Below are positions 4,301 through 28,417 of a stretch of DNA of 32,000 nucleotides, one piece after another (the stretch's first letter is position 1; each line of letters begins with the position of its first letter). The stretch is taken from assembly GCF_000018465.1 (NCBI RefSeq), contig NC_010085.1, positions 1,500,001-1,532,000 on the forward strand. The letters are read 5' to 3'. A program made the translations under genes and the position numbers. The notes beneath the pieces are model-generated. The model was not told the origin of the DNA, searched no databases, and saw only the letters and a program-made list of their open reading frames with translations. Origin of the DNA: Nitrosopumilus maritimus SCM1. GTDB lineage: Archaea > Thermoproteota > Nitrososphaeria > Nitrososphaerales > Nitrosopumilaceae.

Positions 4301-5923
4301 TCAGACACGAATGATTCCCTTTTGAATCAAATATTCCAGTCCTTGGACAAATGTCTGATCGTCTATTTGTTTTGCAGCCCACCATGCAGCATTGTTTCTA
4401 ATCCATGATGGAATTTCTTGGGATGAAGAATCTTGTTGTTGTGTTGATGGAATTACAATTATTTTGTTTTTGATGAGATATTCAATTCCTTGAACAAATG
4501 TATTATCATCAATTTGTTCTTCAGACCACCACAATGCATTGTTTCTAATCCAATCAGGAATTGTAATTTCTTTTTGAGATGTAACTCTATCAATTACAAT
4601 TGGAATAGTTGTTCTTGCAAGATCATTATTATCTAAATTATTAAAATTTAGATTAACAATTCCTGTAACATCTTGTGGAATTGTAAACTCTACTACATTA
4701 TGTTCTTCTCTTGAATCAGTACTTGTTCCACTTTGTTGGTAAATGACTTTGTTATTTTGTGTAATAGAGAAATCATAATTTGTTGCTATAGGTTTGTTTT
4801 TCAAGAAAACATCAGTTACATCAAATAATATTTTTGCATCAGAACCAGATTGCAAGTTTTCAGGTTCCCAAGATGCAAAAATTCGAAATTGTCCATTTTC
4901 AGTAACTGAGCTCATATGCGGATAATCTCTATCAGGAGTAATTAGGAAATTCATGCCATTTTCATTTGAGCCATTTTCAAGAACTCGGAGTAATTCTTGT
5001 TGATAAATAATAAAATGCACCACACGACCGTCAGAAAAAAAGTCATCTATTGTAGATATGTCATCAGAGAGTTCTACTCCATTAATGTACATGGTGAATC
5101 CAGATACAAGCAAATCACCATAGGTTTTTGGAATATCTAACTCTTCATGGACAACTGATGTTTGATTGATGTTTGTATGACTCCATTCAAAAGGCATTGA
5201 AAATCTAATCTCTTTTGAATCAGTATCATATTCAAAGTCAGATATTTCATCATAGTAAGTAATTACGTCAATGCTTTGTTCTCCAAAGTTTGGATCAACA
5301 AAATCATGGCTAGAGGTTTGGGCAATAGAAATTCCTGCATTAAACACTAGTGGTTTTTCAAGTGTTTTTGAATATCCATCAGCAGTAAGTATACTGATAT
5401 CAAATTTGTACAGTCCACCCTCACTGAGTTTTGGGCCTTTGACATGAATTAGTCTACTATCTAATCCCAATATGGAACCAAAGAAATTAGCACCAGTTTC
5501 TTCTTCTATTACAATAGAATCAGTTTCTTCTGAAACAAAATTGAATACTAGAAAACCATTATCTGTTTTGAATTCTTGCTCAAAGAGAAATTGGTTTCCT
5601 TTCTCAGATTTTATGTGAAATGTAACATCACGTAGTGTAATTTTTGAATCAAAGTCAATCAGAGAAATAGAGATTTGTTGATCGTCATCTGCTTCAGGAT
5701 CACTTTGTGATGAAGAAACCTCTACAGTTACTTGTTTTCCATCAAGGTTTACAGGAGGAAATGTCTCACTTCCTACACCATGACCAAAGGCACTATCAAA
5801 AGTAAATACAAACAACAATGGCAGTAAAAGTAACAGGAATAGATTTTTCAAATTATGTCCACTTGTTTGGATCTTTTTTACGAATTTCTTTTCCATCAAT
5901 TGTAACAGAGTCTTTTTCTTCAA
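4301..5923 (-). CDS. Secreted multi-domain protein, paralog of 6093-7811, with a predicted N-terminal His after signal cleavage and two C-terminal WW modules
   Basis: 540 aa as tracked, from a TTG start. The signal peptide ends ...FTFDSAFG|HGVGSE. It is collinear with 6093-7811 in sequence (SIAQ..., MPFEW/MPFDW, VVHEE..PKT, VVHF(I/L)I..QEL). The WW modules are at 4451-4561 and 4304-4414. Alternative starts are the ATG at 5896 and the TTG at 5851 (MKNLFLLLLLPLLF...). Confidence 0.85.
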   Translation of the reverse strand: MKKKTLLQLMEKKFVKKIQTSGHNLKNLFLLLLLPLLFVFTFDSAFGHGVGSETFPPVNLDGKQVTVEVSSSQSDPEADDDQQISISLIDFDSKITLRDVTFHIKSEKGNQFLFEQEFKTDNGFLVFNFVSEETDSIVIEEETGANFFGSILGLDSRLIHVKGPKLSEGGLYKFDISILTADGYSKTLEKPLVFNAGISIAQTSSHDFVDPNFGEQSIDVITYYDEISDFEYDTDSKEIRFSMPFEWSHTNINQTSVVHEELDIPKTYGDLLVSGFTMYINGVELSDDISTIDDFFSDGRVVHFIIYQQELLRVLENGSNENGMNFLITPDRDYPHMSSVTENGQFRIFASWEPENLQSGSDAKILFDVTDVFLKNKPIATNYDFSITQNNKVIYQQSGTSTDSREEHNVVEFTIPQDVTGIVNLNFNNLDNNDLARTTIPIVIDRVTSQKEITIPDWIRNNALWWSEEQIDDNTFVQGIEYLIKNKIIVIPSTQQQDSSSQEIPSWIRNNAAWWAAKQIDDQTFVQGLEYLIQKGIIRV

Positions 5924-6059
5924 AGATTGTATGCCATTTACCGTTACTAGGGAAAATTTTGTTCATCTCTTCAACTTTTTTACTGGTTGGAGCTTTATTC
6001 ATCAAAGCTCCCCACCTCATGTTAGGAACTTTTGGCATGATATCATTGATGTCTTTCAT
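5853..6059 (-). CDS. Possible small protein (68 aa), function unknown
   Basis: This ORF is open in an AT-rich genome where random ORFs are short, and it lies between the two large paralogs. Its stop (5853-5855) sits 1 nt before the in-frame TTG at 5851 of the next gene. It has no recognisable motif and overlaps the tracked N-terminus of 4301-5923. Confidence 0.35.
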   Translation of the reverse strand: MKDINDIMPKVPNMRWGALMNKAPTSKKVEEMNKIFPSNGKWHTIFEEKDSVTIDGKEIRKKDPNKWT

Positions 6060-6092
6060 TTTATTATCACTTTACTGAATTTATTTAAAAAC

Positions 6093-7811: not shown

Positions 7812-7915
7812 AACAATGTTAATTCCATATTTAAAGATGGCATAGTATTCCTATACGTGAGATTTTTTTTAAGAATGATGGTACGATTTTTATTTATCAA
7901 TTTTTGAAGTACGGT

Positions 7916-8743
7916 ATGAAGATTCTGTTTGTATTATTACTTATTCCATTTTTAATGGTTCCAGCATTTGCTGAAACTCAAACATTACCCACAGAAAAGA
8001 ATACTCTTGATGTTAAATTAACATACGATACCATTGAGCCAGGTATTCAAACTAAGATCAACATAGATTTTATTAATCCACAAACTCAAAAAGTTCAAGA
8101 ACACATTGACTATACAGTAGTTGTTTCAAAAGATGGTGAGACTGTATTTGGTCCAATTCCACTTACACATACTTCTCTGGGTTCTGTCAAAATCCCAATA
8201 GAATTTAATCGTGGTGAAGGAGTGTATTCAATGGACTTTGAAGTTGAAGGAATTTTATTCCAACCAATTCCAAGAGAGACTGTATCTTTTGATATTCAAG
8301 TAGGTGAAGCCAATGCACAACCAATTACACCACCTGAAGACAACAATGATGAGAATAATGGAGAAAATGGGGGTTGTCTTATTGCAACAGCAACATTTGG
8401 TTCAGAACTTGCACCACAAGTACAACAACTTAGGGAACTTAGAGACAACACAGTTCTCAAAACAAATTCAGGAATTACATTTATGACAACTTTTAATCAA
8501 TTCTATTATTCGTTCTCACCAGTTATTGCAGACTTTGAAAGAGAGCAACCATTATTCAAAGAAGTTATGAAAGTAACACTCACTCCAATGTTATCATCAT
8601 TATCATTGCTTAATCATGCAGATATTGATTCAGAACAAGAGATGTTAGGTTATGGCATATCCATAGTACTGCTAAATCTTGGAATGTATGTTGGAATTCC
8701 TATATTTGGAATTCTAAAGTTGTACCAATTTAGAAAAAACTAG
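7916..8743 (+). CDS. Secreted beta-sandwich protein with a CFI-box-type C-terminal domain (GC(L/F)IATA(T/A)(F/Y)GS...LRxxRD)
   Basis: The tracked ORF starts at the TTG at 7904, but the ATG at 7916 gives MKILFVLLLIPFLMVPAFA|ETQ. An Asn/Glu/Asp/Gly-rich acidic linker is followed by GGCLIATATFGSELAPQVQQLRELRDNTVL... (Cys codon at 8375-8377) and a hydrophobic tail. This matches the motif I recall for CFI-box-CTERM proteins. Confidence 0.8.
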   Translation: MKILFVLLLIPFLMVPAFAETQTLPTEKNTLDVKLTYDTIEPGIQTKINIDFINPQTQKVQEHIDYTVVVSKDGETVFGPIPLTHTSLGSVKIPIEFNRGEGVYSMDFEVEGILFQPIPRETVSFDIQVGEANAQPITPPEDNNDENNGENGGCLIATATFGSELAPQVQQLRELRDNTVLKTNSGITFMTTFNQFYYSFSPVIADFEREQPLFKEVMKVTLTPMLSSLSLLNHADIDSEQEMLGYGISIVLLNLGMYVGIPIFGILKLYQFRKN

Positions 8744-8802
8744 GATTCACTTATTGGAAATTCTAGTGAGGTTTTTATGTATCCAACAAAGTAAACTGTT
8801 TA

Positions 8803-9615
8803 ATGAAGACTATAGCAATTTGCTCTCTCTTCGTACTATTTGCAATGGTAGCTGGATTAGTTGCAACAACGCCAGCAGCATTTGCAAACCATCCAGAAGT
8901 CACAATCGTACCAGCATCAGGTTCTGGTGCACCAGGTTGTGAAGAAACAGCAGATGGATGTTACATTCCAAGTACTGCAACAGTTGATGTTGGAGGTGTT
9001 GTAATCATGTCAAATACTGACACTGCAGCACACACATACACTTCAGGAACTCCAGATGATGGACCAGACGGTATCTTTGATACTAGTTTGTTAATGGCCG
9101 GAAGTTCATTTGAATGGAGTCCAACTGAAGAAGGTGAATATCCTTACTTCTGTATGGTACATCCTTGGATGCAAGGTACGATTATAGCTGCAGCAGCAGG
9201 AGCTGACGATCATGGTGACGATGGCGGTGAATTAATGGTTTCAATTGCAGATTCACAAGTATTGGGTGGAACACAAATTGAACTTACATTCAGCGAATTA
9301 CACGTCAACTATGACATTACTGCAACACAAGGTGGCGAAGTAGTCCTACAAGAAACTAATCAACACGCAATGGAGTCTACAGCAACGCATCAAATTGATG
9401 CACTAGGTGCTGATGACAATCCAATTGATGTAGAAATTGTTTCTCTAGGAATTGGAGCACCAGGTGCTGAAGCAGATTGGACTGGACCAACAGGTGTAGT
9501 TGCAACTGCTAAAGTTGTTCCAGAATTTGGTACAATCGTAATGATGGTACTAACTGTTGCAATCATAAGCATTGTAGCAGTAACTGCAAAATCTAGAGTT
9601 ATTCCAAGATTTTAG
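8803..9615 (+). CDS. Plastocyanin-like blue copper protein with a PEFG-CTERM sorting signal
   Basis: 270 aa. The signal peptide ends ...TPAAFA|NHPE. The cupredoxin ligand pattern is ...AAHTYTS... and YFCMVHPWMQGTI (C-x2-H-x2-M). The C-terminus VVPEFGTIVMMVLTVAIISIVAVTAKSR (PEFG at 9520-9531) is the thaumarchaeal PEFG-CTERM architecture. Confidence 0.9.
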   Translation: MKTIAICSLFVLFAMVAGLVATTPAAFANHPEVTIVPASGSGAPGCEETADGCYIPSTATVDVGGVVIMSNTDTAAHTYTSGTPDDGPDGIFDTSLLMAGSSFEWSPTEEGEYPYFCMVHPWMQGTIIAAAAGADDHGDDGGELMVSIADSQVLGGTQIELTFSELHVNYDITATQGGEVVLQETNQHAMESTATHQIDALGADDNPIDVEIVSLGIGAPGAEADWTGPTGVVATAKVVPEFGTIVMMVLTVAIISIVAVTAKSRVIPRF

Positions 9616-10258: not shown

Positions 10259-10360
10259 TGCTATCATTTTATAATTACAGGTTATTATCTTTACGTGAAT
10301 TGGTACAAAGATCGAATTCATGAAAACTGTTTAAATTATGAATGATTAATTGAAGAATGA

Positions 10361-13144
10361 ATGCAAAAGTTTCTGATTGTTTTATTGATGATGTCGTTTA
10401 TTTCAATTCCATTAGCATCAGCTCATCCTTTTACTGAGGAAACTATTCCAAGTTTAACATCTAGTGCTCCAGCTGGAACAACAGAAGTTATCGTATATTT
10501 TTCAGAACCAATTGATATTAACTTTAGTGAACTCAGAGTATTTGATACAAATGGAAATCAAATAGACAACAAAGATACGGCTTACTATGAAGGAGAATTA
10601 TCTCTGATCATTACAACATCACCATTGGAAGATGGAGTTTATACTGTATCAACCAAAGTTCTCTCCAAAGTAGATGGACATCTTGTTCCAGATGCATTCT
10701 TGTTTGCAGTTGGTGATGTTGTAATTGATCCCTCATTACTTGATGTAGAACGACCATCTGAAATCATATTTTTACCCGAAGCTGGTGCTAGATTCCCAGG
10801 ACTGATTGGTCAAACAATTGTCTTAGGTGCAGTAATTGCATCACTCATAATTTGGGGAACACAGAATAAACAACTAATCAGAGAAGAATTAGATAAGATT
10901 GGAAACTTCCATCAGGGAAAGTTTATGTCAATTACAGGAATTGGGCTTGTTTTAATTTTCATTTCTAATATTTTGATGATTGCAGTTCAGAGTATAAGAC
11001 TTGGGGTTTCTCCGCTTGATGCAATTCAAACGGATTTTGGAATAACATGGATATTGAGAATGAGCATTACAATAATTATACTAGGTATTTGGTTTAGACT
11101 TGATAGAAGCAAGTCACTATCAAAAAAGAATCAAATTCTATTGTTGGGAGCAATGCTTGCATTAATTTCAACTTCAAGTTTGATTGGTCACGGTGCAGCT
11201 AGTGAAAACATACCAGCATTAATACTTGATTACATTCACAATTTAGTTTCAGGAGTTTGGATAGGCGGAATTATTTACTTCGTATTTATTTTACTTCCAA
11301 CATTCTCTCAACTAAAAGAGACACAACGAGAAAAGATGAGTCTGTTAATGATTCCTCGATTCTCAATTACATTTATCATTGCTGTAGGAGTGATCATAAT
11401 CACAGGTCCAACATTGATGTGGTTTCTAGAAAGTGATATTAGATTAATTACAGAATCGATTTATGGTCAATTAATTATTCTAAAGATTTCAATTGCAGCA
11501 GTAATAATTGCATTTGGGGGATTTTTTCAATTCAAATTACAAAAGAAGGCAGAAAAGAATCTGGAATCAGGAAAAATTTCTGTTCATAAAAAATTAAAAA
11601 AATCGCTCAAAGTTGACGTAGTACTAGGAATAGTACTTCTAGGAGTTGTTGCATTAATTACAAATGCAACACTACCAGCAGGAGAAATCCAAAAAATTGA
11701 TGCACAAGAGATAATTTACGGATTTGAAACTCTGGAATTTACTGAAAATGCAAAATTTGACATTGACATTTCGCCATTTTCAAGTGGCTCAAACACAATT
11801 CTAGTTAAAGTTAGTGACTTTGAGGGAAATCCACTCTACGATTCAAATCAGCTTAAAGTCAAGGTATCAAACCCATCAAAGAATATCTCACCAATAGAAG
11901 TACCAATGGAGATAATCAAACAGGATAAAAATAGACCAATAGAATTCAAAGGTGAAATGACATTTGGGTTTTCAGGAGAATGGTTAATGGAAGTTGAGGC
12001 ACAAAGAACTGAAAATGCAAATGAATCAAAGCTTTTGAATTTACTAGTAAAACCAAGACTGACTGACATTCAGACACAAGTTATCGAATACGAACTCCCA
12101 AAAGATTCAAAACCACTTTTCCCATTGTATGATGGACGAGATACACTTTGGGTAAGTGATGCATCAGCTCCACGTTTGTGGGAATTTTCACTTGAAACTC
12201 AAGAGTTTACATCATATTCATTTGATGGATTGACTACAACATTTCTAACACAAGACAAAGACGGTAAAATTTGGTTTACAGATACTCCCAGAAATCAAAT
12301 TGGATTCATAGACCCTCAAACAAAAGAGATTATAACAAAAACAATTCCAAAACTTGATCCTGTTATTTCAGACAATACTCCACTTTTCATAAAAGCAGAC
12401 TTTGATGGAAATATTTGGATTACAATTGTTAACAAAGACAGAATTGTAAAATATATACCAGAAAATGATGAGTTTGAAGAGATTGTTCTTCCAGGAAAAG
12501 AGAACTTGCCATTTGCATTAGATATTGATGTAGATGGAAAGATGTGGTATACAACAACTGGTGCAGGAAATATTGGATATATTGATCCTAAAGACAATCA
12601 AATTACTCAATTTTCAAATGATCCACCATTACAAGGACCTGAGGCTTTGCTCTTTGATGAAGATGGAAACATCTGGATTGCAGAGCATACAGGCTTGGCA
12701 ATTACCAAGTTTAACCCAGTTTTAGAGACATTTGAGAGAATTACCGTGCCTAATGATGAAGCATTACCGTTTGGTATGACATTTGATAGATATGGAAATG
12801 TTTGGTTTGCTCAACATACAATAGATAGTATTGGAGCATATGATCCGGATAACAATAATTTGATTGAAGTACCAGTTCCTTCAGAAACATCCTTTGTACA
12901 ATTCATGACATCAGATGGAGACAGTAATGTTTGGTTTGTTGAACAACAAACAAGTAAGATTGGTACAATAAAGATGACAGAAATTCCAGTTACTGCATCA
13001 CAAATTCAATCATCAGGAGAATTTGAATTAAAATACACAGAACTTGCATCGCCACTAATTGCATTAGGAATTATTGCAACATCTTTGTTTTATGTGAAGA
13101 GTATTCAAGATAAAAGAAGACTAAATGAATTAATTAATTCTTAG
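10361..13144 (+). CDS. CopC-CopD fusion protein extended by a beta-sandwich domain, a Vgb/NHL-like beta-propeller and a C-terminal TM anchor
   Basis: 927 aa. The signal peptide ends PLASA|HPFTEE. The CopC pattern reads (...EVIVYFSEPI...GVYTVSTKVLSKVDGHLVPDAFLFAVG). About 8 TM helices with HGAASEN form a CopD-like region (roughly aa 140-440). A sandwich domain follows at aa 455-560. Repeated propeller blades follow (DGKIWFTDTPRNQIGFIDPQTKEI, GNIWITIVNKDRIVKYIP, GKMWYTTTGAGNIGYIDP, GNIWIAEHTGLAITKFNP, GNVWFAQHTIDSIGAYDP, SNVWFVEQQTSKIGTI). The final TM is LIALGIIATSLFYV. Confidence 0.9.
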   Translation: MQKFLIVLLMMSFISIPLASAHPFTEETIPSLTSSAPAGTTEVIVYFSEPIDINFSELRVFDTNGNQIDNKDTAYYEGELSLIITTSPLEDGVYTVSTKVLSKVDGHLVPDAFLFAVGDVVIDPSLLDVERPSEIIFLPEAGARFPGLIGQTIVLGAVIASLIIWGTQNKQLIREELDKIGNFHQGKFMSITGIGLVLIFISNILMIAVQSIRLGVSPLDAIQTDFGITWILRMSITIIILGIWFRLDRSKSLSKKNQILLLGAMLALISTSSLIGHGAASENIPALILDYIHNLVSGVWIGGIIYFVFILLPTFSQLKETQREKMSLLMIPRFSITFIIAVGVIIITGPTLMWFLESDIRLITESIYGQLIILKISIAAVIIAFGGFFQFKLQKKAEKNLESGKISVHKKLKKSLKVDVVLGIVLLGVVALITNATLPAGEIQKIDAQEIIYGFETLEFTENAKFDIDISPFSSGSNTILVKVSDFEGNPLYDSNQLKVKVSNPSKNISPIEVPMEIIKQDKNRPIEFKGEMTFGFSGEWLMEVEAQRTENANESKLLNLLVKPRLTDIQTQVIEYELPKDSKPLFPLYDGRDTLWVSDASAPRLWEFSLETQEFTSYSFDGLTTTFLTQDKDGKIWFTDTPRNQIGFIDPQTKEIITKTIPKLDPVISDNTPLFIKADFDGNIWITIVNKDRIVKYIPENDEFEEIVLPGKENLPFALDIDVDGKMWYTTTGAGNIGYIDPKDNQITQFSNDPPLQGPEALLFDEDGNIWIAEHTGLAITKFNPVLETFERITVPNDEALPFGMTFDRYGNVWFAQHTIDSIGAYDPDNNNLIEVPVPSETSFVQFMTSDGDSNVWFVEQQTSKIGTIKMTEIPVTASQIQSSGEFELKYTELASPLIALGIIATSLFYVKSIQDKRRLNELINS

Positions 13145-13952
13145 AAAGTAGTCCAACAGATTTTATTCCCATGGTACTAGCTAGTAATCCAATTGAGATC
13201 AAAACAATCGTTCCTGCAGGAGTAATATCAAAGATGTAAGAAACTAAAATTCCTGTAACAACTGAGAAAATTGAAAAACTCATAGAAATAATTGCAGTTT
13301 GTTTGAAACCCTTACCATACATTATTGCGGATACATTAGGAATTACAAATAGGGCAGAAATTAATAAAACACCAACAAGTTGAATTGAAGTAACAACAGT
13401 AATTCCTGCCATAAACACTATAAGGTAATTTATTTTTTCTACAGGAATTCCGCTAACTTTAGCTTGTTCTTCATTAAATGTAGAATAAAGAATCTGACGA
13501 TACAACACCAATAGCACAATTAGAATTGCACCAGTAAGAGCAAGTATCAAAACTGTGTCATCAACACTGACAAGTAGAATACTACCAAAGAGAAAACTAA
13601 AGATATCAATTGTAAATCCCCCGGATAATCCAATAACTACGAGCCCAACTGCTATACCTGAGGACAAAAGTACTGCTATTGATGCATCACCTGATATGTT
13701 GAATCGGTCTTTGATTCTTGTAATGATTAATGCACTGACAATTGATACGCCATATGCTGTCCATAATGGATAGACTCCTGCCAAAAGACCTAATGCAATT
13801 CCACCAAAAGATGAATGTGCTATTGCATCACCAAATAGAGAATAACGTCTAAGAACTAAGAACAATCCTACAACCGAACAAAGAATTGCAATAGCAATTC
13901 CAGAAATTAATGCTCTATGCATAAAACTATAGGTTAGAATTTCAAAAGACAT
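13134..13952 (-). CDS. Metal ABC transporter permease (ABC-3 / ZnuB-TroD family)
   Basis: 272 aa, polytopic. The N-terminus FMHRALISGIAIAILCSVVGLFLVLRRYSLFGDAIAHSSFGG is typical of the ABC-3 family. It is the last gene of a three-gene operon. Confidence 0.9.
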   Translation of the reverse strand: MSFEILTYSFMHRALISGIAIAILCSVVGLFLVLRRYSLFGDAIAHSSFGGIALGLLAGVYPLWTAYGVSIVSALIITRIKDRFNISGDASIAVLLSSGIAVGLVVIGLSGGFTIDIFSFLFGSILLVSVDDTVLILALTGAILIVLLVLYRQILYSTFNEEQAKVSGIPVEKINYLIVFMAGITVVTSIQLVGVLLISALFVIPNVSAIMYGKGFKQTAIISMSFSIFSVVTGILVSYIFDITPAGTIVLISIGLLASTMGIKSVGLLSKN

Positions 13953-13954
13953 GA

Positions 13955-14677
13955 TTAATGATGATGCATATGCTCCTGCATAGATGCTTCAGAATACTGT
14001 TTGACAAGCTCATCATCAGAGAAGAATTTTTCAGATTCTCCATGGAAGAATAACGTTCTGTTAAGACAAGCAACATGATTAGCTAGTTGGTTTACTGCAT
14101 CCAAATCATGAGAAGACCAAATGATTGTAATTTTTTGTTTAGAGTTTAGTTCACGTAAGATACTGTAGAATAATTCTATACTTTGCTGATCAATTCCTGT
14201 AATCGGTTCATCTAAAATCAAAAGTTTTGGATTATTTACCAAAGCTTTTGCAATAAAGACTCGTTGTAGTTGTCCTCCTGATAATTCTCCTATTCTTCTA
14301 TTTCGGAGTTCATGTATCCACAATTGTTGCAAAATTTCATTAATTTTATTTTCATCAGATTCATTTCTCAGTCCCATCCTAACAACATCAGTAACAGTTG
14401 CCGGAAAATTTTTTTCAAAAATTGGTTTTTGGGGAACATATCCAATTTCTTTAAGATAATTTTTTGAAATTCTGATATCCTTATCAAAAAATTTGATTTC
14501 ACCTTTGTACTTTGTATTGAGACCAAGCATGCAATCAAAAAGAGTGGATTTTCCAGCGCCATTTGGGCCAATTATGCCTAGAAAATTACCTTGATTAACC
14601 ACAAAACTGACATCATCAAGAGCTTTTACGTCAGGATATTGAACTGAAAGGTTACTTATTTCAACTGCTTTCAACAC
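13955..14677 (-). CDS. Metal ABC transporter ATP-binding protein (ZnuC/TroB-like)
   Basis: 240 aa. It has Walker A GPNGAGKST, signature LSGGQLQR, Walker B LLILDEP, and a His-rich tail MQEHMHHH. Confidence 0.9.
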   Translation of the reverse strand: MLKAVEISNLSVQYPDVKALDDVSFVVNQGNFLGIIGPNGAGKSTLFDCMLGLNTKYKGEIKFFDKDIRISKNYLKEIGYVPQKPIFEKNFPATVTDVVRMGLRNESDENKINEILQQLWIHELRNRRIGELSGGQLQRVFIAKALVNNPKLLILDEPITGIDQQSIELFYSILRELNSKQKITIIWSSHDLDAVNQLANHVACLNRTLFFHGESEKFFSDDELVKQYSEASMQEHMHHH

Positions 14678-15591
14678 AAGGCCTCCTGTAGATTCTCAAG
14701 ATTTTGTTTCATTTTAGAAATGTATGTCCCTTCAGATGCAATTTCTAATGGAGAGAGGACCAAAACTTGTCCACCAATTTCATGTGCAATGGTTTCAGAA
14801 GTTCTAGTGTCAACTGTTTCTTCACTAAAAATTATTTTAATATTATGTTCTTTAGCTGTTGAAATTACATTTTCTAATGTTTTTGCAGTTGCTTCTCCGT
14901 GTGGATCAGTTGAAGATAGAATTGTATGTTGATGTAAATCATATTCATCTGCAAAATATGAAAAAGCATCATGAAATGCAATAAAATCGGAATTACAATT
15001 AGACAAATCATTTCTAATTTGTAAATCCAATAAAGTTAGTTCTTGAATGTAAGATTCTGCATTAGATTGATAATATTGTTGATTTTCTGGATCATGTTTT
15101 GAAAATTCATCAGCAATATTTTGAACTTGGATTTTTGCAAAAACTGGATTTAACCAAATATGAGGATCTCCTGTTTCACGATTAGGTTCATCCATATGTT
15201 CATCTTCTTCATATTCTTTTACTAAAATTCCATTACTTGTGTCAACAATATTTCCTTGATAGTTATTCTCATCAAGTTTATCTACCCAGTCTTCAAAACC
15301 AATTCCATTAATAATTATCATATCAGATATTTGCATTTTTTGAACATCTTTGATTGTTGGTTCCCAATCATGAGGTTCAACTCCAACTGGAACAAGCAAT
15401 ATTGCATCAACTTTGTCTTGTCCTATATTTTGTACAAATTCATGTAACGGATCAAATGATGAAATTACTTGTAATTTTGACTTTTCAGAATATATTGAAT
15501 CTGTATTTGGACTTATTCCATAAACTGCAAAGGAACTTAATGGAATTACTACTGCAATTGCAATTATCGCAAGTTTGGTTTGTGTATTCAT
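14671..15591 (-). CDS. Metal ABC transporter substrate-binding protein (TroA/ZnuA cluster A-I)
   Basis: 306 aa with a signal/anchor helix. It carries HDWEP, an acidic/His loop EEDEHMDEPNRETGDPHIWLNP, and FHDAFSYF, which are hallmarks of the ZnuA/TroA family. It overlaps the ATPase gene by 7 nt. Confidence 0.9.
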   Translation of the reverse strand: MNTQTKLAIIAIAVVIPLSSFAVYGISPNTDSIYSEKSKLQVISSFDPLHEFVQNIGQDKVDAILLVPVGVEPHDWEPTIKDVQKMQISDMIIINGIGFEDWVDKLDENNYQGNIVDTSNGILVKEYEEDEHMDEPNRETGDPHIWLNPVFAKIQVQNIADEFSKHDPENQQYYQSNAESYIQELTLLDLQIRNDLSNCNSDFIAFHDAFSYFADEYDLHQHTILSSTDPHGEATAKTLENVISTAKEHNIKIIFSEETVDTRTSETIAHEIGGQVLVLSPLEIASEGTYISKMKQNLENLQEALC

Positions 15592-20143: not shown

Positions 20144-21322
20144 TCAAACCAAGATACTAGTCATATACATTATCAACATACCTAAAGCAAATCCTGAGGC
20201 AACTGCAGCACTAGATAAATTACGATCACCTTCAGTTCTAATCCATTTCAAAATGGTAATAATTACTTGAAATATGGCGCCAGCCCCTATTGAGAGAAAT
20301 ATTACTGATGAGAATGGAGAGTAAACAAAGCCTCCTACCCATGCTCCAAAGATTGCAGGTGCTCCTGCAATCATTCCCATAGCTGTAAGTTTCCAAATTA
20401 CTGTTTTTTCTCTGGACATTGGAGATGCAATTGCAATTCCTTCAGTGGTGTTATGAAGTGCAAATCCCACTATCAAAAATGTACTAAAGGCAATAGAGCC
20501 CAAGCCTACTGCGGCACCTATTGCCAACCCTTCGCCAAAGTTGTGCAATCCAATTCCTATTGCAATCATTAATGCAATAGCTACCGGTTTTGTAATTCTA
20601 GAGGAATCTGATATTTTTATTAATTTTTCACCAGCATAGTACAAACCAAGAAATGAGAGTACTGAAGTTGTGGCAACAAGTAATACTCCATTGAAACTAG
20701 ATGCAAGATTTTCATCAGAGACTTCTATTGCTTCTTCAATAGAATCAATCCCTAAAAATAACAACAGTCCTGCAGTTAATGCCAAAAAGAAATGGTATTT
20801 TGACTTTTTAATTTTTTTAATAAAAGGCAACCACAAAAGTCCAATCATTACGGGAATTATTCCAACATAAGTTCCAATTATTGCAAAAAATACTGCAAGA
20901 TCTAAAGTTGGTTGCAATGCAGGAGCAGCAGCAGCAATCTCTTTTTCAAACCTAGTTCCATCGTCTACTGTGATTCCGATAATGTATGGTTCTGCATCAT
21001 TCCATTCAAATGGAATTCTTACAAGTGCCGTTTCATATCTCTCTAGAAATCTATCAGGCTCTACTGCAGCAGGATGAATTCTGTCGTTAACATCCGCCAT
21101 AACTACTTCAACTGGAATAGGGCCAGTATTCCTTACGGTTGCATGTATTTCTGATTCTAGGAAATCAACTTTTTCAATAGTTACTTCAGGTAACGGGATA
21201 CCCAAATCAAGTAAATCCGAGCCTGGTCCAAAGATGTATGCCACCATCAAAACAATAAATGCAAATGGGATTATTCCACTAGCAATAACTTTGGCCTGGG
21301 ATCTTTTCTCATCAAGTTCCAT
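20144..21322 (-). CDS. ZIP-family divalent metal permease with an N-terminal extracytoplasmic domain
   Basis: 392 aa. The ZIP signature helices are GIGLHNFGEGLAIGAAVG and GFALHNTTEGIAIASP. One N-terminal TM helix is followed by a soluble domain of about 110 aa. Its start overlaps the MCO gene end by 11 nt. Confidence 0.9.
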   Translation of the reverse strand: MELDEKRSQAKVIASGIIPFAFIVLMVAYIFGPGSDLLDLGIPLPEVTIEKVDFLESEIHATVRNTGPIPVEVVMADVNDRIHPAAVEPDRFLERYETALVRIPFEWNDAEPYIIGITVDDGTRFEKEIAAAAPALQPTLDLAVFFAIIGTYVGIIPVMIGLLWLPFIKKIKKSKYHFFLALTAGLLLFLGIDSIEEAIEVSDENLASSFNGVLLVATTSVLSFLGLYYAGEKLIKISDSSRITKPVAIALMIAIGIGLHNFGEGLAIGAAVGLGSIAFSTFLIVGFALHNTTEGIAIASPMSREKTVIWKLTAMGMIAGAPAIFGAWVGGFVYSPFSSVIFLSIGAGAIFQVIITILKWIRTEGDRNLSSAAVASGFALGMLIMYMTSILV

Positions 21323-22373
21323 AGTCTACTTCCTCTGTATTTTTTTGTTCATCATCTTTTACAAGGAAAACTCCAACCCAGCCTTTCTCTGAAAACTCTA
21401 CTTTATGAGCATGAAATAGATATTTTCCTGGATACTGGTACTTGAATTCCATTATACCTCTTTCTGTTTGAGACAATGTAATCATGTCTGTAAATTCAGA
21501 TGGGACAATATCTGTTCCTGTTGGATAGTATTGGTATAGATTTCCATGCAAATGTAAATTGTTAATTGGATCAAACTCTACCATATTGACAACATAAACT
21601 CGAATCAGTTCATCTTTTTTAATTTGAATTGGATGATGTTGGTAGTAAAACGGAATAGAATTTGCAGCATAGAAATTATTTTCAGTATCAAAGTCAGTAT
21701 CAAATCCATTTAGAACCATTACCATTTCATCAGCTGGTGGACGTCCTTCTTTGGGATCTACGATAAAGACACCGTACAATCCATGCGCAATGTGTTCCTC
21801 TAAAGGCATGACATGGCAGTGATATGGATGAACGCCAACAGGGCCTGCCTCAAATTCATAAGTGAATTGGCCGCCGTTTGCACCTACAATTTCAAAGACT
21901 CCATCCATTTCTGCTGGATGCTCTCCATGAAAATGCATGGTATGTGGTTTGTCACCATTGTTGATGAAATTAATTCTTAATAGATCCCCTTCTGTTGCTC
22001 TTATTGTTGGACCGGGAACTGTTCCATTAAAAGTCCAAACATTGTAAAATACACCTGGAGAAATTTCTTGAACTCTGTCATCATCGGCAATTATTGTAAA
22101 CTCTCTTACTGTCTGACCATTTTCTAATTGTGAAACACGACCATAGTTGAATTCTCTGAGATATTTTTCAGGATCAAACTCCACTTCTGATACCTGATAA
22201 ACAGGATCCAGAACCTCACCACTTGTTTTTACAACACTTCCTGTATGGGTAACAAATGCTTTCTCCTCTTTCTGGGCATCAATTCCTTCAGGAAATACAA
22301 GAAAAACTGATGATATGGCAACTACTGCAACAATAAAGACCAACATTAGTCCTGAACGGGATCTCATTACCAT
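21312..22373 (-). CDS. Two-domain multicopper oxidase
   Basis: 353 aa with a signal/anchor helix. The copper motifs are HTMHFHG, HPYHCHVMPLEEHIAHGLYG (HCH plus T1 ligands, with axial Leu), NLHLHG and LFHAH. Confidence 0.9.
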   Translation of the reverse strand: MVMRSRSGLMLVFIVAVVAISSVFLVFPEGIDAQKEEKAFVTHTGSVVKTSGEVLDPVYQVSEVEFDPEKYLREFNYGRVSQLENGQTVREFTIIADDDRVQEISPGVFYNVWTFNGTVPGPTIRATEGDLLRINFINNGDKPHTMHFHGEHPAEMDGVFEIVGANGGQFTYEFEAGPVGVHPYHCHVMPLEEHIAHGLYGVFIVDPKEGRPPADEMVMVLNGFDTDFDTENNFYAANSIPFYYQHHPIQIKKDELIRVYVVNMVEFDPINNLHLHGNLYQYYPTGTDIVPSEFTDMITLSQTERGIMEFKYQYPGKYLFHAHKVEFSEKGWVGVFLVKDDEQKNTEEVDYGT

Positions 22374-22482: not shown

Positions 22483-22974
22483 CTAAAAATTTGCTTTGTT
22501 AAATGAAAGCAGTAAATTTGGATTTGATTTTAGAAAAGTGGTAAATTTTCTTAGCTGTTTCATAGTTTTTGGGTTCATGTGATGCTCAATTCCTTCCACA
22601 TCTTTGTTTGCTATGGAACTGTCAACGCCAATAATTTCAAAAAAATCTAGTAGATCACTATGTTTTTGCCTAATATCGTTTGCAATATTCATTCCTTTAG
22701 AAGTTAGTTTCAGTCCCTGATATTTTGTATATTCTAAATAACCATCAGCATCTAGGCGACGTAGCATTTTAGTTACACTTGGAGGTCGGACATTCATGTA
22801 ATTTGAGATATCTGTGGGTGAAGCATATCCTTTTAGTTCTACTAGTTCAGAAATTACCTCAAGATAATCCTCCATGGTAGTTGTAAATGTATTTTTTTTA
22901 CCATGAGCCTTTTTTATGGATTCTAATCTTTTTTCTTTTTTATCAGATATCTTGATATTTGATTTGCTTACCAT
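22483..22974 (-). CDS. DtxR/MntR-family metal-dependent transcriptional repressor
   Basis: 163 aa. It reads MEDYLEVISEL...ASPTDISNYMNVRPPSVTKMLRRLDADGYLEY...LTSKGMNIANDIRQKHSDLLDFF...VEGIEHHM, which is the wHTH plus dimerisation/metal domain of DtxR/MntR. It lacks the SH3-like third domain. Confidence 0.85.
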   Translation of the reverse strand: MVSKSNIKISDKKEKRLESIKKAHGKKNTFTTTMEDYLEVISELVELKGYASPTDISNYMNVRPPSVTKMLRRLDADGYLEYTKYQGLKLTSKGMNIANDIRQKHSDLLDFFEIIGVDSSIANKDVEGIEHHMNPKTMKQLRKFTTFLKSNPNLLLSFNKANF

Positions 22975-23134: not shown

Positions 23135-23647
23135 CTAACTTATGGTAACTAATCCTACTCTCCATGGATGAAATGAGCAATAGTAGTTGAAAACTCCTTT
23201 CTCCTCGAACGTAAATTCGAATCTATCTCCTGTATTTAGTGGTGGACTGTTAAACAATTGAATGACTTTTCCTCCCTCATCGATACTTTGTATGTTGTGT
23301 GGTACTGAATCATCATTTACCCATGTGACTGTAGTTCCTACTGAAATTTCCAGATTCAATGGAGAGTAAAATCCGGCGCCAGTTACATCAAAGTTTCCAT
23401 TTGGAATAACAACTTGCGCATTAACTACTTGTGGAACTGGCTCCATCACCGTATCTATTACAATTACTTCATTTTCAATCAAGAATTTTATCATGTTGAG
23501 AAATTCACTTTCTGAGACAATTCCTTCACCGTACCATAATGCTGTATTTTTTACCCACTCTGGAACTGATTCAGCAAATGCAGACACACCGCCAATAGAA
23601 AGAACAATAGGGATTAGTGCAAGAATCAGATAATTCATCACATACAA
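23135..23647 (-). CDS. Secreted cupredoxin with an N-terminal WW module and a non-canonical axial position
   Basis: 170 aa. The signal peptide ends ...GGVSAFA|ES. The WW module VPEWVKNTALWYGEGIVSESEFLNMIKFLIENEVIVI is at 23456-23566. The cupredoxin part reads VGTTVTWVNDDSVPHNIQS...YYCSFHPWRVGLVTIS, with Arg where the paralog at 8803 has the axial Met. Confidence 0.85.
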   Translation of the reverse strand: MYVMNYLILALIPIVLSIGGVSAFAESVPEWVKNTALWYGEGIVSESEFLNMIKFLIENEVIVIDTVMEPVPQVVNAQVVIPNGNFDVTGAGFYSPLNLEISVGTTVTWVNDDSVPHNIQSIDEGGKVIQLFNSPPLNTGDRFEFTFEEKGVFNYYCSFHPWRVGLVTIS

Positions 23648-23753
23648 TTTACATTAGAGATATTTAACTTTCAATTTTTTTACAAATTAATTCTTTTTCA
23701 AAAAATTCTAGATGTAAAATCAGTCTTTAATGCTAATTTGTTTTATTGTTGTA

Positions 23754-24788
23754 CTAGTTTTTAGAGACATTTGTAAATAACGAGAATTTAGACTTTGTAA
23801 ACAATATTGTCAAACCAATGGAAAGTGTAAAAACCAATACAACAAAGAATCCAAATTCTGGAATTACTGTGTTATGATATTTTTCAACTATTGGACTATA
23901 ACTAGCACCTGGTGCAATTCCACCTCCAATCAAATAGATATTTCCGTCAACAGTAACTGCATCTAATCCATGTCTTGGAATTGGCATTGGTTGTTGTTCA
24001 AACCATCCTTTCTCTGGTATATATGCCTCATTTTCGCCAAAGGTGTTAGTATATCCCTCACCACCAAAAACAAATATTGCTTCGTTCATGGCAGATGCTG
24101 CTAACCCACTTCTTGCAGTAGGAATAGGTTCAAGAGATTCCCAAGAGTCAGCTGTAAAATCATACACTTCTGTTGCATCAACATTGAGTTGTCCAGATCT
24201 TCCTCCAATCACATACATTTGACTATCTAAAACTGCAGATGCAAGATGTTCTCTAGGAGTTGGTAAGTCAGATTTTTTCTCCCAAGAGTCAGTTACTGGA
24301 TCATAAACTTCGTTTTCAAAACGAGTTTCTGTATTAAATCCTCCAACCGCATATAATTTTCCGTCAAGAAATTCTGCAGTTAATGCCCCTCTAGCTGTAG
24401 GCATGTTTGTGCCCTTTGACCACACATCAGCATCTATATCGTAAATTAATAATTCATCAGATGGAATCCATTTATCATAATATCCTCCAACTACATACAA
24501 TTTTCCTTCATAAATTGACGCACCAGAATGATGTAACATACTTGGCATAGAAGTACTAATGCTCCAAACATCTTCGTTAGTGTCATAAACAAACACAGAA
24601 TTTTCAGCAAGTTCTTTGTTGTTCAGGCCCCCAATCACATAGATTTTATCCTCATATGCAATTGCTTTTGATTCTGATCTTGGTTCAGGTAGATTAGATA
24701 GTCGTTCCCAACCTTCTAAAGGTTCTTCAGCAAAAATATTTGGAGTTGTAAAAGACAAAAGAATTAAAAAAAATATTGCTATTTTCAT
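23754..24788 (-). CDS. Secreted Kelch-repeat beta-propeller protein with PEFG-CTERM
   Basis: 344 aa with about six Kelch blades (IYVIGG, LYVVGGY, LYAVGGF, MYVIGGR, IFVFGGE, IYLIGGG, each followed by a W). The C-terminus is NTVIPEFGFFVVLVFTLSIGLTILFTKSK. Confidence 0.85.
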   Translation of the reverse strand: MKIAIFFLILLSFTTPNIFAEEPLEGWERLSNLPEPRSESKAIAYEDKIYVIGGLNNKELAENSVFVYDTNEDVWSISTSMPSMLHHSGASIYEGKLYVVGGYYDKWIPSDELLIYDIDADVWSKGTNMPTARGALTAEFLDGKLYAVGGFNTETRFENEVYDPVTDSWEKKSDLPTPREHLASAVLDSQMYVIGGRSGQLNVDATEVYDFTADSWESLEPIPTARSGLAASAMNEAIFVFGGEGYTNTFGENEAYIPEKGWFEQQPMPIPRHGLDAVTVDGNIYLIGGGIAPGASYSPIVEKYHNTVIPEFGFFVVLVFTLSIGLTILFTKSKFSLFTNVSKN

Positions 24789-26542: not shown

Positions 26543-26744
26543 TAAGCACCGTGACTGCGAATCCTATATAATAATTCCCCTTGCCTAGAGTGCATTTTCA
26601 CCACATTTTTAAAAATAAAACCAGATTTTTTTCATTGATCGTTTATAGGACTTGTATAAAATAGAAGTTTTTTGCAGATATTAAAAAAACTTGATTTATG
26701 ATCTGAGTGTAGAATTTACATAAATTTCTAAGAAGATGTTTAGA

Positions 26745-27380
26745 CTATGAAATAGGCTTTTCATCTTTTTCTAAGATGTTGTTTCTAGTCCCAAGCCAAT
26801 CAGGCCATCCGGCCCATCCTTTGTTTTTGTATGTTCTATTGGGAGTTGTAGGTATATCTGCAGGTAGCTGAAATGTTTTGTAATATTGCACCCATTGAAG
26901 ATAATTACAAAGTTTTAATTTTCTTGCAAACATTCTAGCTTGATTAAATGGTCTGAATTTTTTGTTTTGTGGAGCTACGGTATAAGTCCCAAGCCAATCC
27001 CCAAACCCTTTCCACTCTTTTGTATAATACTGTCGTGGAACAGATGGGATGTCCTGAGGTTTTTTGTTTGATTTACAAAATTCTAACCAGTCATAATAAG
27101 TTCTTAAATTAAGTGAATGTGCAAATTTTCTCGCATCCTTAAATGATCTAAATTTTTTGTTTTGTGGAGCTACGGTATAAGTCCCAAGCCAATCCCCTAA
27201 CCCCTTCCACTTTTTTGCATAATGTTTTCGTGGAACAGATGGGATGTCCTGAGGTTTTTTGTTTGATTTACAAAACAAAATCCATTCACGTTCATTTTTT
27301 AATTTTAAACTGTGTACATAATCTCGTGCATTCTTAAAAGATTTGAATTTCATATTTTTTCTAATTGTCACATTTATCAC
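26745..27380 (-). CDS. Basic protein made of three ~65-aa repeats (F.(S/P)F..AR.F...L.L....W..(F/Y)(C/Y)K....P.DIP..P...Y...W.G..DWLGT), integrase-repeat-like
   Basis: 211 aa with repeats at aa 12-76, 77-141 and 142-198. The first two are about 75 percent identical and share long identical DNA runs. The start overlaps the stop of the upstream membrane-protein gene (ATGA, 27377-27380). Confidence 0.75.
   Translation of the reverse strand: MINVTIRKNMKFKSFKNARDYVHSLKLKNEREWILFCKSNKKPQDIPSVPRKHYAKKWKGLGDWLGTYTVAPQNKKFRSFKDARKFAHSLNLRTYYDWLEFCKSNKKPQDIPSVPRQYYTKEWKGFGDWLGTYTVAPQNKKFRPFNQARMFARKLKLCNYLQWVQYYKTFQLPADIPTTPNRTYKNKGWAGWPDWLGTRNNILEKDEKPIS
26787..27347. repeat. Intragenic tandem repeat, period 195 bp, about 2.9 units
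   Basis: Identical 47-nt runs lie at 26956-27002 / 27151-27197 and at 27034-27080 / 27229-27275, offset exactly 195 bp (65 codons). The third unit is degenerate. Confidence 0.9.
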
Positions 27381-28417
27381 AACATAATTTGCTTTATCTT
27401 ATTTTCCAAGTACAATACATAGAGTATTACGCCTATTAGAGATATTTCTAAAGACTTTGCAACAATTCCAGATATTTCTATATGTTCAGGGTGATTCTCA
27501 GGAGATAGTGGAGGAGTAAAATTTACAGCATAAATGTACAACCCTAACAAAACAAGAGACCCTAATAATCCAAAAAGATAGACAGTCGTATTTCTTCTAC
27601 GTAAAATACACGTATTTTTTTGCATACCTGTGGAGTCAGTTAGCAGTACAGATAATAACAATACCCCAAAACCAATTTGAGATATTGCAGCTAACAGCAA
27701 GAACATTCCATATTCGATACGGAGTGGGACATGATCAACGTAAACTGACAAATGGATTACTCCTCCAGAAAGAGCTAAAAACATCATAATGTATCGAAGT
27801 GTTTCATATCTTCCTAGCTTTCGTTTTGAAGTTTTATTTTTGTAATTATTTAGCAATGCATATCCAAAAACACCAAAAGGCAATATCACGACAATAACCA
27901 TCAACGAATTCCAAATGGTATTCCAATTCTCTGAAACTGAGACATTGAATAAAACTCTGGTACAATCGCAATTAAATGAACTGGAAGGTATTTGTCTGGG
28001 AGGCATCACATGTTCTTTGGTATTATTTTTTTCAGAAATGCTAAGTACAATTTGATAAGTTCCTTTGTCTTCAAAAACATAAGGGATTTCAAAATCGCCA
28101 ATAGCGCGTTTAGTCCAAGGTTCATAAAACAACCTTTTTTCCATATTTGTACTGTAGATTTCCAACATGGTTTCTAGTTCATACAAATCATTGCCATGTT
28201 CATCTTGAATGCTAAAAATTATTTTAGAATTTTCTCCAGGAGTTGGATTTCGAGGTTCAAATCCAATATAGGAATAATATTTTCCCTCCATTACGCCTCC
28301 TGAGCTGCTTTGTTCCAAATGAGCATATGAATTTGAAGAAGAAAATAGATACAGAAATGTCAATACAAAAAAAATAACAACTATTGAAGATTGTTTTTTA
28401 AGAGAAAATTTGTACAT
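27377..28417 (-). CDS. Membrane protein: exported beta-sandwich domain with a predicted N-terminal His plus a 5-TM C-terminal domain
   Basis: 346 aa. The signal peptide ends ...SSSNSYA|HLEQSS. The sandwich-like segment is FEPRNPTPGENSKIIFSIQDEHGNDL...GTYQIVLSI. Five hydrophobic helices follow, with GGVIHLSVYVDHV in the second. Confidence 0.75.
   Translation of the reverse strand: MYKFSLKKQSSIVVIFFVLTFLYLFSSSNSYAHLEQSSSGGVMEGKYYSYIGFEPRNPTPGENSKIIFSIQDEHGNDLYELETMLEIYSTNMEKRLFYEPWTKRAIGDFEIPYVFEDKGTYQIVLSISEKNNTKEHVMPPRQIPSSSFNCDCTRVLFNVSVSENWNTIWNSLMVIVVILPFGVFGYALLNNYKNKTSKRKLGRYETLRYIMMFLALSGGVIHLSVYVDHVPLRIEYGMFLLLAAISQIGFGVLLLSVLLTDSTGMQKNTCILRRRNTTVYLFGLLGSLVLLGLYIYAVNFTPPLSPENHPEHIEISGIVAKSLEISLIGVILYVLYLENKIKQIML

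Follow-up and report, generated by a model that had tools for sequence, protein, structure and literature searches.

Conserved histidines at the predicted mature N-termini of five exported proteins at a Nitrosopumilus maritimus locus: candidates for extracytoplasmic metal capture

Introduction

Why should five exported proteins, encoded close together in one archaeal genome, each be predicted to start with a histidine once the signal peptide is removed? The question is raised by a stretch of 32,000 nucleotides (nt) of Nitrosopumilus maritimus SCM1 (NC_010085.1, positions 1,500,001 to 1,532,000)—here called the window, with positions counted from its first letter—and by five of its proteins, here called P1 to P5, one of which bears a CopC domain. 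The histidine at the predicted first mature position (+1) is real, non-random, and conserved. We lean towards reading the five proteins as an extracytoplasmic metal-capture set, most likely for Cu(II), whose members would chelate the metal via the amine and the imidazole of the N-terminal His. Judged from their sequences, P1/P2, P3, and P5 form three uncharacterised families that resemble new metal-capture proteins, probably for copper.

The energy metabolism of ammonia-oxidising archaea runs largely on copper proteins, and these organisms are often copper-limited. To our knowledge, no dedicated high-affinity copper-uptake route has been established for them. An N-terminal His set free by signal peptidase is an established bidentate chelator—by amine and imidazole—in CopC, YcnI, lytic polysaccharide monooxygenases (LPMOs), and PmoB. 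Extracytoplasmic copper acquisition and distribution in ammonia-oxidising archaea are poorly understood, and discussion has been confined to CopC/D, ZIP permeases, and multicopper oxidases (PMC7785015, PMC9723733). Earlier work found CopC/D fusions to be a conserved trait of ammonia-oxidising archaea (PMC7785015); the CopC part of the present set is hence known, and the P1/P2, P3, and P5 families appear to be new here. Our literature searches connected ammonia-oxidising archaea with no histidine-brace or N-terminal-His protein apart from ammonia monooxygenase (AMO), and turned up no paper under the locus tags Nmar_1646-1669 (tags guessed). A discovery method termed "signal strapping", which looks for a signal peptide followed by His, was published in 2025 and yielded DUF4198 (Ni), DUF6702, and the anglerases (PMC12537917). 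The search logic of the first-pass annotation, which had pointed to the five proteins of this window, was essentially the same.

Histidine at the predicted mature N-terminus

The five proteins are listed with their predicted cleavage sites, the cut being marked by a slash:

P1, 4301-5923, minus strand: exported protein, open reading frame (ORF) of 540 amino acids (aa); SAFG/HGVG, His48 (codon 5780-5782), predicted mature N-terminus HGVGSETFPP
P2, 6093-7811, minus strand: paralog of P1, 572 aa; DVFG/HGLG, His29 (codon 7725-7727), predicted mature N-terminus HGLGGDQAP
P3, 9629-10258, minus strand: 209 aa, transcribed divergently from the CopC-CopD gene (P4); PSFA/HTTV, His24 (codon 10187-10189)
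P4, 10361-13144, plus strand: fusion protein of 927 aa; LASA/HPFT in front of its CopC domain, His22 (codon 10424-10426)
P5, 27377-28417, minus strand: membrane protein of 346 aa; NSYA/HLEQ, His33 (codon 28319-28321)

All five ORFs were confirmed, each with an N-terminal hydrophobic segment (Kyte–Doolittle maximum of 2.8-3.3 over 10 residues), and the codon of the +1 His is CAT in every case. Cleavage sites were assigned by a simple (-3,-1) small-x-small rule applied after this segment, and signal peptidase is presumed to cut at the positions so predicted. On these counts, the claim of the first-pass annotation—five exported proteins with a predicted His at +1—was verified throughout.

About 10-12 proteins in the window carry cleavable-looking signal peptides, and several further ones with hydrophobic N-termini resemble uncleaved anchors. 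The signal peptides share an F/Y-A/G ending (SFA/E, AFA/E, AFA/N, SFA/H), and peptides of this same style precede Glu at the predicted +1 position in four proteins (2127-3422, 7904-8743, 23135-23647, and 23754-24788), Asn in one (8803-9615), and Gln in one (21312-22373). The earlier statement that other exported proteins begin with Glu or Asn was thus borne out and gained the Gln case, and with it the argument that His at +1 is not a general property of the local signal peptides. His accounts for 1.8% of the residues in window proteins. As P1 and P2 are paralogs (28-33% identity), the five occurrences count as four independent cases, for which, among about 10 exported families, the binomial p is ~3e-5 (at p=0.02) or ~1e-3 (at p=0.05). 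A common ancestry of the N-terminal domains was considered and rejected, the profile-profile probabilities among P1/P2, P3, P5, and CopC being at most 6%; shared ancestry does not explain the His, because these four families have no detectable sequence relationship.

The orthologs of all five proteins keep the +1 His; a His+1 that is not conserved across orthologs had been named at first pass as a refuting result, and this was not what we saw. The figures for P1 to P4 come from 80 related loci of further Nitrosopumilus and Nitrosarchaeum genomes. In P3, His24 is present in 81/81 sequences, and SFA/HTTV is found in all orthologs (64-96% identity). The CopC-CopD orthologs keep A/HP[FY]TE in 77 of 78 cases. 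In about 65 genomes, P1 orthologs keep [FY]G/HG[VIL]GSETFPP and P2 orthologs keep F[GA]/HGLGGDQA. For P5, His33 is invariant in 38/38 members that share 29-82% identity and reach Nitrosocosmicus and Nitrososphaeraceae, while the residues around it vary (HLEQSSSGG in marine forms, HFxHLxHYN in soil forms).

The P1/P2 family extends much further. Its profile gave 1127 matches in the homolog search, and a search with the core profile brought together 462 clusters (50% identity), of which 137 reach E<=1e-30. The +1 residue was tabulated in the best 150 of the 462 clusters, and the 126 that have the N-terminus show His in 96, Asp in 25, and Gln/Glu/Asn in 5, always directly after a signal-peptide-like segment and within the motif [AG]/[HD]G.[GT].E..PP. 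By its sequence, the +1 position of this family would hence alternate between two metal-ligand residues. The invariance of His33 at 29% identity amid varying neighbours and the restriction of P1/P2 to His/Asp argue for selection on a ligand-type side chain.

The CopC–CopD fusion P4

P4 is composed of:

signal peptide
CopC domain, aa 22-117 (DNA 10424-10711)
CopD membrane domain, about aa 150-433
weak YtkA-like domain, aa 465-545
Vgb-lyase-type beta-propeller, about aa 600-873
C-terminal hydrophobic segment

That one of the five proteins is a clear CopC, as annotated at first pass, is well founded: Pfam CopC scores 39.7 bits (cutoff 23.3) over aa 22-117 and the full profile (1-92), and CopD scores 55.1 bits (cutoff 32.1). 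The propeller matches Vgb_lyase with 161.8 bits, and YtkA is seen with E=0.033. NCBIfam matches to CopC and CopD lie below the equivalog cutoffs, with copper_CopC at E=3.6e-9. The Cu(II) ligand set of CopC is present—His22 directly after LASA/, and Asp105-Gly-His107 as the D-x-H motif—and the domain has zero Met in aa 22-120, so that it bears no Met-rich Cu(I) site. From these residues, it is assigned to the single-Cu(II)-site class C0-1, as are Methylosinus CopC and Bacillus subtilis YcnJ (PMC12362106, PMC7785015).

The P3 family and its promoter region

In P3, the signal peptide is followed by His24, which opens the first strand of a beta-sandwich of about 110 aa; a helical linker then leads to a membrane anchor at the C-terminus. 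Its gene is a faithful companion of P4: the CopC-CopD gene lies adjacent and divergent in 77 of the 80 related loci. All 81 sequences have His24, Gly37, Trp38, and Glu41, and at least 90% of them keep Glu35. These figures hold for the Nitrosopumilaceae, as the genome scan reached down to 59% identity in Nitrosopumilus and Nitrosarchaeum; a homolog search gave 2638 matches, of which the best 120 all share at least 79% identity. Comparison of the family profile with PDB sequences gave nothing meaningful.

An AlphaFold2 (AF2) model built from a shallow alignment has a mean predicted local distance difference test (pLDDT) score of 57.6, with parts of the sandwich at 70-85. It places strands between residues 22 and 133, with His24 within the first strand (22-29), and helices at 149-170 and 182-208, the latter being the terminal transmembrane (TM) helix. 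The β1-β2 hairpin would set the invariant Gly37-Trp38 beside His24, as far as the strand register of this low-confidence model allows. Among the top 50 Foldseek matches in the PDB, the best—a weak one—is Helicobacter pylori CrdA (9ll2/9ll4; E ~1e-3, TM-score ~0.5, 18-20% identity), a CopC/PcoC-family barrel (PMC9182242), followed by FetP, FtrA, and generic Ig-like domains.

Reyes et al. described the motif TTCSGSMTTTGWACYANT at 35-70 nt upstream of genes induced by Cu limitation around the copC/D cluster of Nitrososphaera viennensis (PMC7785015). The window holds two copies:

10299-10316, minus strand: TTCGATCTTTGTACCAAT, between the divergent P3 and CopCD genes and 41-58 nt before the start codon of P3
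4273-4290, minus strand: TTCGAGAATTGAACCAGT, shortly past the P1 stop codon and 36-53 nt upstream of the gene (3845-4237) that encodes a His-rich membrane protein of 130 aa

Both copies differ from the N. viennensis motif at 2 positions, and the conserved element has the form TTC-N5-TTTGTACCAAT. Two matches with <=2 mismatches compare with 0.18 expected in the window and with 0/100 shuffles. Of 44 full-length related loci, 18 carry a match at the very position of the copy upstream of P3, and these make up half of the matches seen in 1.3 Mb; the other copy has a match at the equivalent place in 5 related loci. By sequence, P3 and CopC-CopD would be linked to the same kind of promoter element as in N. 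viennensis, a link that does not imply copper regulation in Nitrosopumilus.

The P5 family

After the signal peptide of P5 come a flexible stretch rich in Gly and Ser that carries His33, an Ig-like beta-sandwich (aa 40-161), and five TM helices (aa 165-345). The source genome calls a shorter protein of 304 aa that starts at Met43 and lacks both the signal peptide and the invariant His33; the 346-aa form is the real gene, because both the signal peptide and the His are retained in every homolog of 340-390 aa. The family comprises 96 proteins, and its named members are almost entirely Thaumarchaeota, from Nitrosopumilus to Nitrosocosmicus/Nitrososphaeraceae.

Fourteen residues are invariant in the 38 members: H33, D72, D77, E86, Y88, W101, D108, C150, C152, R154, H222, H229, Y236, and Q247. 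They fall into an acidic/aromatic set within the sandwich (D72, D77, E86, Y88, W101, D108), a C150-x-C152 pair just before the last sandwich strand, and His222-x6-His229 in TM2. The positive-inside rule would put the loops that follow TM1 and TM3 in the cytoplasm, and with this topology His229, Tyr236, and a conserved PPLSPxNxPE loop would face outward towards the sandwich.

The AF2 model of P5 has a mean pLDDT of 77, with the sandwich at 84-91. Foldseek gave only generic Ig-like folds at E ~1e-3, including the copper proteins CrdA, PmoD, and FetP, and sub-threshold Pfam matches to YtkA and FixH occur in 6/38 and 2/38 members, respectively. A search against PDB sequences (E<=10) gave no match to P5. 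The surroundings of distant P5 homologs are metal-related: in Nitrosocosmicus, these are a Vgb-lyase-type propeller, AmoC, and a plastocyanin, and in another soil lineage a CDF transporter, a multicopper oxidase, and a histidine kinase.

In the window, the gene that follows P5 encodes an integrase-repeat protein, whose start overlaps the P5 stop codon by 4 nt; this overlap suggests that the two are co-transcribed. For the ORF after the Nitrosocosmicus P5 homolog, no INT_rpt match was found.

The P1/P2 family

P1 likely starts at Met10 (position 5896), since its orthologs have about 531 aa. It is built of a core of about 280 aa common to P2, a variable middle, and two C-terminal repeats of about 35 aa (IPxWIxNNAxWW...). 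Neither P1 nor P2 has Pfam, NCBIfam, or PDB sequence relatives. All named family members are Thaumarchaeota (Nitrosopumilus, Cenarchaeum, Nitrosotenuis), most clusters being unnamed; non-archaeal members were looked for, and none is among the named ones. The family is probably limited to Thaumarchaeota.

In 66 diverse members (P1 numbering), the conserved positions are the +1 His/Asp, Gly+2, D90, G123, GGLY (169-172), S199, YYD (223-225), MPFxW (243-247), His259, Glu261, Asn281, Asp293/294, and His303. Going by these positions, His259, His303, and carboxylates could complete a site with the N-terminal His. Duplication is frequent, and many genomes have three paralogs per locus. One Asp+1 paralog (G/DG[LF]T.ENLPP, 31-34% identity) takes the place of P2 in three Nitrosarchaeum loci:

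locus L075, 13269-14813
locus L076, 13388-15067
locus L080, 13468-15162

A third P1/P2-type paralog of about 460 aa (SSVYG/HG[FL]GIDTISS) is found in most related genomes beyond the CopC-CopD and Znu genes, at about 2.8-4.2 kb of the related loci (e.g., L001, 2773-4152). It is absent at the corresponding place in the window, where a DsbA-like gene stands instead.

The repeat of about 35 aa follows the consensus IPxW[IV]KNNAxWWxxxxIxDxxFxxGIxYLIxxxII and has no Pfam match. Two copies stand at the C-terminus of each of P1 (4301-4600), P2 (6093-6390), and a 431-aa exported protein (2127-3422), and one at the mature N-terminus of a plastocyanin-type protein (23135-23647). These repeats may be a surface or S-layer retention module that holds P1/P2 at the cell surface.

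Gene neighbourhood

The gene order starts with a MoxR/DUF58-type pair, the 431-aa exported protein, an ArsR-like regulator, and the 130-aa His-rich membrane protein, and continues with P1, P2, a CFI-box-CTERM protein, a PEFG-CTERM plastocyanin-type protein, P3, and P4. After P4 come ZnuB/C/A-like genes, a NikR-like gene, DsbA-like genes, and a ZIP permease, followed by a two-domain multicopper oxidase, a DtxR-like regulator, a second plastocyanin-type protein, and a Kelch protein. The last part comprises a second multicopper-oxidase-like protein, the integrase-repeat protein, P5, a second DsbA-like gene, and a Vgb-lyase-type propeller. The features referred to here by position are:

3845-4237, minus strand: small membrane protein of 130 aa with the His cluster LLHGHHIAHIFLH in its first hydrophobic segments
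8803-9615, plus strand: PEFG-CTERM plastocyanin-type protein, predicted mature N-terminus Asn-His (AAFA/NHPEV)
13134-15591: ZnuABC-type transporter genes
15683-16066: NikR-like regulator
22483-22974: DtxR-like regulator
26745-27380, minus strand: integrase-repeat protein of 211 aa, three units (Pfam INT_rpt), without signal peptide
30045-31619, plus strand: separate exported Vgb-lyase/SGL-type propeller near P5

The first-pass annotation had spoken of an island. This holds in the sense of a conserved syntenic neighbourhood and not in that of a foreign insert, because the window is AT-rich with a uniform guanine–cytosine content (0.28-0.38, with no compositional break) and its gene order is found again in genomes of Nitrosopumilus and Nitrosarchaeum. 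The close relatives of the window proteins are all from Nitrosopumilus.

Some side observations concern these neighbours. The 130-aa His-rich membrane protein, for which no Pfam family match was found, lies directly 3' of P1 and behind the second promoter-motif copy. In the plastocyanin-type protein at 8803-9615 (plus strand), His stands at +2 rather than at +1. Propellers of the Vgb-lyase/SGL type recur alongside the genes discussed here: one is the part of P4 at 12150-12980 that is fused to CopC-CopD, another is the exported protein encoded separately near P5, and a third adjoins the Nitrosocosmicus P5 homolog (locus L081, 5631-7418).

Metal, site, and role

If the five proteins do capture copper, their parts in this process might be the following. 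P4 would act as a YcnJ-type fusion, in which the CopC domain forms a canonical Cu(II) brace (His22 amine and imidazole, His107, Asp105) and passes copper on to CopD, the assumed direction of transport. P3 would be a membrane-anchored accessory Cu(II) binder in the role of YcnI for P4; its mono-His site might be made of His24 with the nearby invariant Trp38 and Glu35/Glu41, and it would exchange copper with the CopC domain. P5 might be a self-contained "capture domain plus permease", where His33 on its flexible segment catches the metal, which would then be relayed to the membrane-proximal CxC and on to the outward-facing His222/His229 of a novel five-helix domain—a parallel to the anglerase–HupE/UreJ-2 arrangement. 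P1 and P2 would be retained at the surface, with the N-terminal His (Asp in a sub-branch), His259, Glu261, His303, and Asp residues probably forming a metal site, for which storage, delivery, or catalysis are all possible.

A periplasmic copper set finds support in the genomic context, where copper proteins abound, namely CopD and two each of multicopper oxidases and plastocyanin-type proteins. The Cu-limitation motif of N. viennensis upstream of P3 adds to this. The histidine-brace reading made at first pass stands for CopC with its full two-His set (His22, Asp105, His107) and not for P3 and P5. A strict brace needs a second His, which CopC has in His107 and for which His259 and His303 would be candidates in P1/P2; P3 has none, nor does the extracellular part of P5, so that these two could bear at most a mono-histidine brace as in YcnI and Ang-1. 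By motif, a histidine brace can hence be assigned to CopC only, while a mono-His site is plausible in P3 and P5 and a multi-His site possible in P1/P2. Likewise, the proposal of a copper-binding set is carried by CopC and the copper-rich context; copper is the most likely metal for these proteins by inference, and Zn/Ni genes stand in the same neighbourhood.

A number of points weigh against the copper-capture reading. Some concern the N-termini themselves: P1 and P2 offer rule-compatible Gly-rich sites 2 and 4 residues further on (FGHG/V, HGVG/S), Asp replaces His at +1 in about 20% of the P1/P2-family clusters, and the P5 His33 lies in a low-confidence segment of the model (residues 27-36, pLDDT <50). 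Others concern the further ligands, as no second conserved His is present in P3 (81 orthologs) and the P5 extracellular domain has none either, its other invariant His residues being found only in TM2. Sequence comparison reveals no relationship of P1, P2, P3, or P5 to CopC, YcnI, PmoB/AmoB, or LPMOs. When P3 was tried as a DUF1775 member, neither the protein itself (E<=0.1) nor 16 members of its family (E<=10) matched; its 50 best Foldseek PDB matches include no YcnI structure, a result whose weight is limited by the low-confidence P3 model. For the P5 membrane domain, two assignments were rejected: HupE/UreJ-2 (PF13795), which none of the 38 members matches at E<=1, and CopD-like, for which hhalign against the CopD region gave 4% probability. 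Then, according to Reyes et al. (PMC7785015), copC/D expression falls in N. maritimus when Cu is limiting, in contrast to N. viennensis, and this makes a plain Cu-uptake reading harder to sustain. Finally, the ZnuABC, NikR, DtxR-like regulator, and ZIP genes share the window, which makes Zn, Ni, Mn, or Fe possible.

The last point leads to the alternative that survives best, which we nonetheless regard as unlikely: the His+1 proteins bind metal, mainly not copper, with P1/P2, P3, and/or P5 serving in the capture or sensing of Ni, Zn, Mn, or Fe. Besides the ZnuABC, NikR-like, DtxR-like, and ZIP permease genes, a distant P5 homolog adjoins a CDF cation-efflux gene, and the His-to-Asp switch at +1 in a P1/P2 sub-branch would suit a harder metal ion. 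The N-terminal-His family DUF4198 prefers Ni, and Ang-1 also binds Ni at 220 nM (PMC12537917). However, the closest neighbours of P1, P2, and P3 are the plastocyanin-type cupredoxin and CopC-CopD, P5 stands beside a multicopper-oxidase-like gene, and the motif upstream of P3 resembles a Cu-limitation motif. In addition, an amino-terminal His chelate favours Cu(II), following the Irving–Williams order, unless the geometry is facial (PMC12537917).

Still less probable is that the +1 residue of P1/P2 belongs to the catalytic or structural site of a secreted enzyme—a metallohydrolase or an oxidoreductase—and has no part in metal trafficking. P1 and P2 are large multi-domain proteins (540-570 aa) with many paralogs per genome, and H259-x-E261...D294...H303 with the Asp residues looks more like the metal site of an enzyme than that of a chaperone. 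Public names of P1 orthologs (NCBI, UniRef) are "peptidase" and "secreted periplasmic Zn-dependent protease". These labels, however, lack a supporting Pfam, NCBIfam, or PDB peptidase model, neither HExxH nor a comparable signature is present, and the name "peptidase" is apparently an inherited annotation.

Least likely of all is a His+1 without any metal role—kept for processing, folding, or packing, or lying in uncleaved anchors, with the clustering due to shared signal-peptide ancestry—for although P1 and P2 are paralogs, the window signal peptides share their local F/Y-A/G style, cleavage and binding are predicted, and the P5 His33 is poorly modelled, signal peptides of the very same style end before Glu, Asn, and Gln, and CopC shows the N-terminal-His principle at the same locus.

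Returning to copper capture as the preferred reading, a bolder form of it—which we consider a long shot—is that ammonia-oxidising archaea own several lineage-specific N-terminal-His copper systems, sequence-unrelated to the bacterial ones. These would comprise P5 as a five-helix copper permease with a "fishing" domain and a CxC relay, P3 as a YcnI-like partner of CopC-CopD that arose on a different scaffold, and, in P1/P2 with their 462 clusters, a copper centre of His1, His259, and His303. Beyond trafficking, such a centre might even have a catalytic role in periplasmic steps of archaeal ammonia oxidation.

Implications

If P1/P2, P3, and P5 are indeed N-terminal-His copper binders, these three families are concrete and abundant candidates for a copper pathway in ammonia-oxidising archaea. 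The N-terminal-His "capture" class of YcnI and the anglerases would then extend to archaea on unrelated scaffolds, and the genes could serve as markers for copper stress in marine metagenomes. Should they bind nothing, they would caution against taking a His at +1 as a metal site.

Comparison with known N-terminal-histidine systems

None of P1/P2, P3, and P5 belongs to a Pfam or NCBIfam family or has a PDB sequence match. P1 and P2 resemble LPMOs and PmoB in an N-terminal His generated by predicted cleavage and in two further conserved His. They start with His-Gly, as mature PmoB presumably does, too (HGEKS...). On the other hand, they have no sequence similarity to LPMO, PmoB, or AmoB; for the modelled P3 and P5, no LPMO or PmoB structure is among the fold matches.

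P4 is closest to an established system. Its counterpart, B. subtilis YcnJ, is a CopC-CopD-YtkA protein (PMC12362106). Like YcnJ and CopC (PF04234), P4 has CopC and CopD above the cutoff, a predicted N-terminal His, Asp-x-His, and no Met-rich Cu(I) site, and like YcnJ it carries a weak YtkA-like domain after CopD. It differs from YcnJ by the extra Vgb-lyase-type beta-propeller of about 270 aa and the further C-terminal hydrophobic segment.

For P3, the counterpart is B. subtilis YcnI, which is C-terminally anchored, bears a mono-histidine brace (His, carboxylate, and a conserved Trp), is encoded next to YcnJ, and exchanges Cu(II) with it (PMC12362106). P3 shares the signal peptide, the His starting strand 1, the small beta-sandwich, the C-terminal TM anchor, and the position beside a CopC-CopD gene, and has an invariant Trp and acidic residues near the N-terminus in sequence. 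Unlike YcnI (DUF1775, PF07987), it has no DUF1775 match, and YcnI lies outside the top fold matches of the low-confidence P3 model, the best weak match being the CopC-family barrel CrdA. Moreover, P3 is divergent from P4, whereas YcnI shares an operon with ycnJ.

For P5, the counterparts are the anglerases Ang-1 and Ang-2, which combine a signal peptide, an invariant His1, an Ig-like sandwich, and a HupE/UreJ-2 permease (Franco Cairo et al. 2025, PMC12537917; PDB 9GCE). Their His1 is 100% conserved, and their mono-His brace binds copper with a dissociation constant (Kd) of ~60-70 nM; the membrane domain of Ang-2 has a modelled His194/His201/His229 site and eight helices in the model (PMC12537917). 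P5 departs from this plan in its five predicted helices versus eight, the missing HupE_UreJ_2 match, the additional invariant CxC, and a sandwich that gives weak YtkA/FixH matches, and Ang-1 (9GCE) is not in its top 50 fold matches. In common, it has the signal peptide, the invariant His1, the Ig-like beta-sandwich, and a polytopic membrane domain with conserved His (His-x6-His). By analogy, P3 and P5 are best regarded as archaeal forms of the YcnI and anglerase designs, built on unrelated scaffolds.

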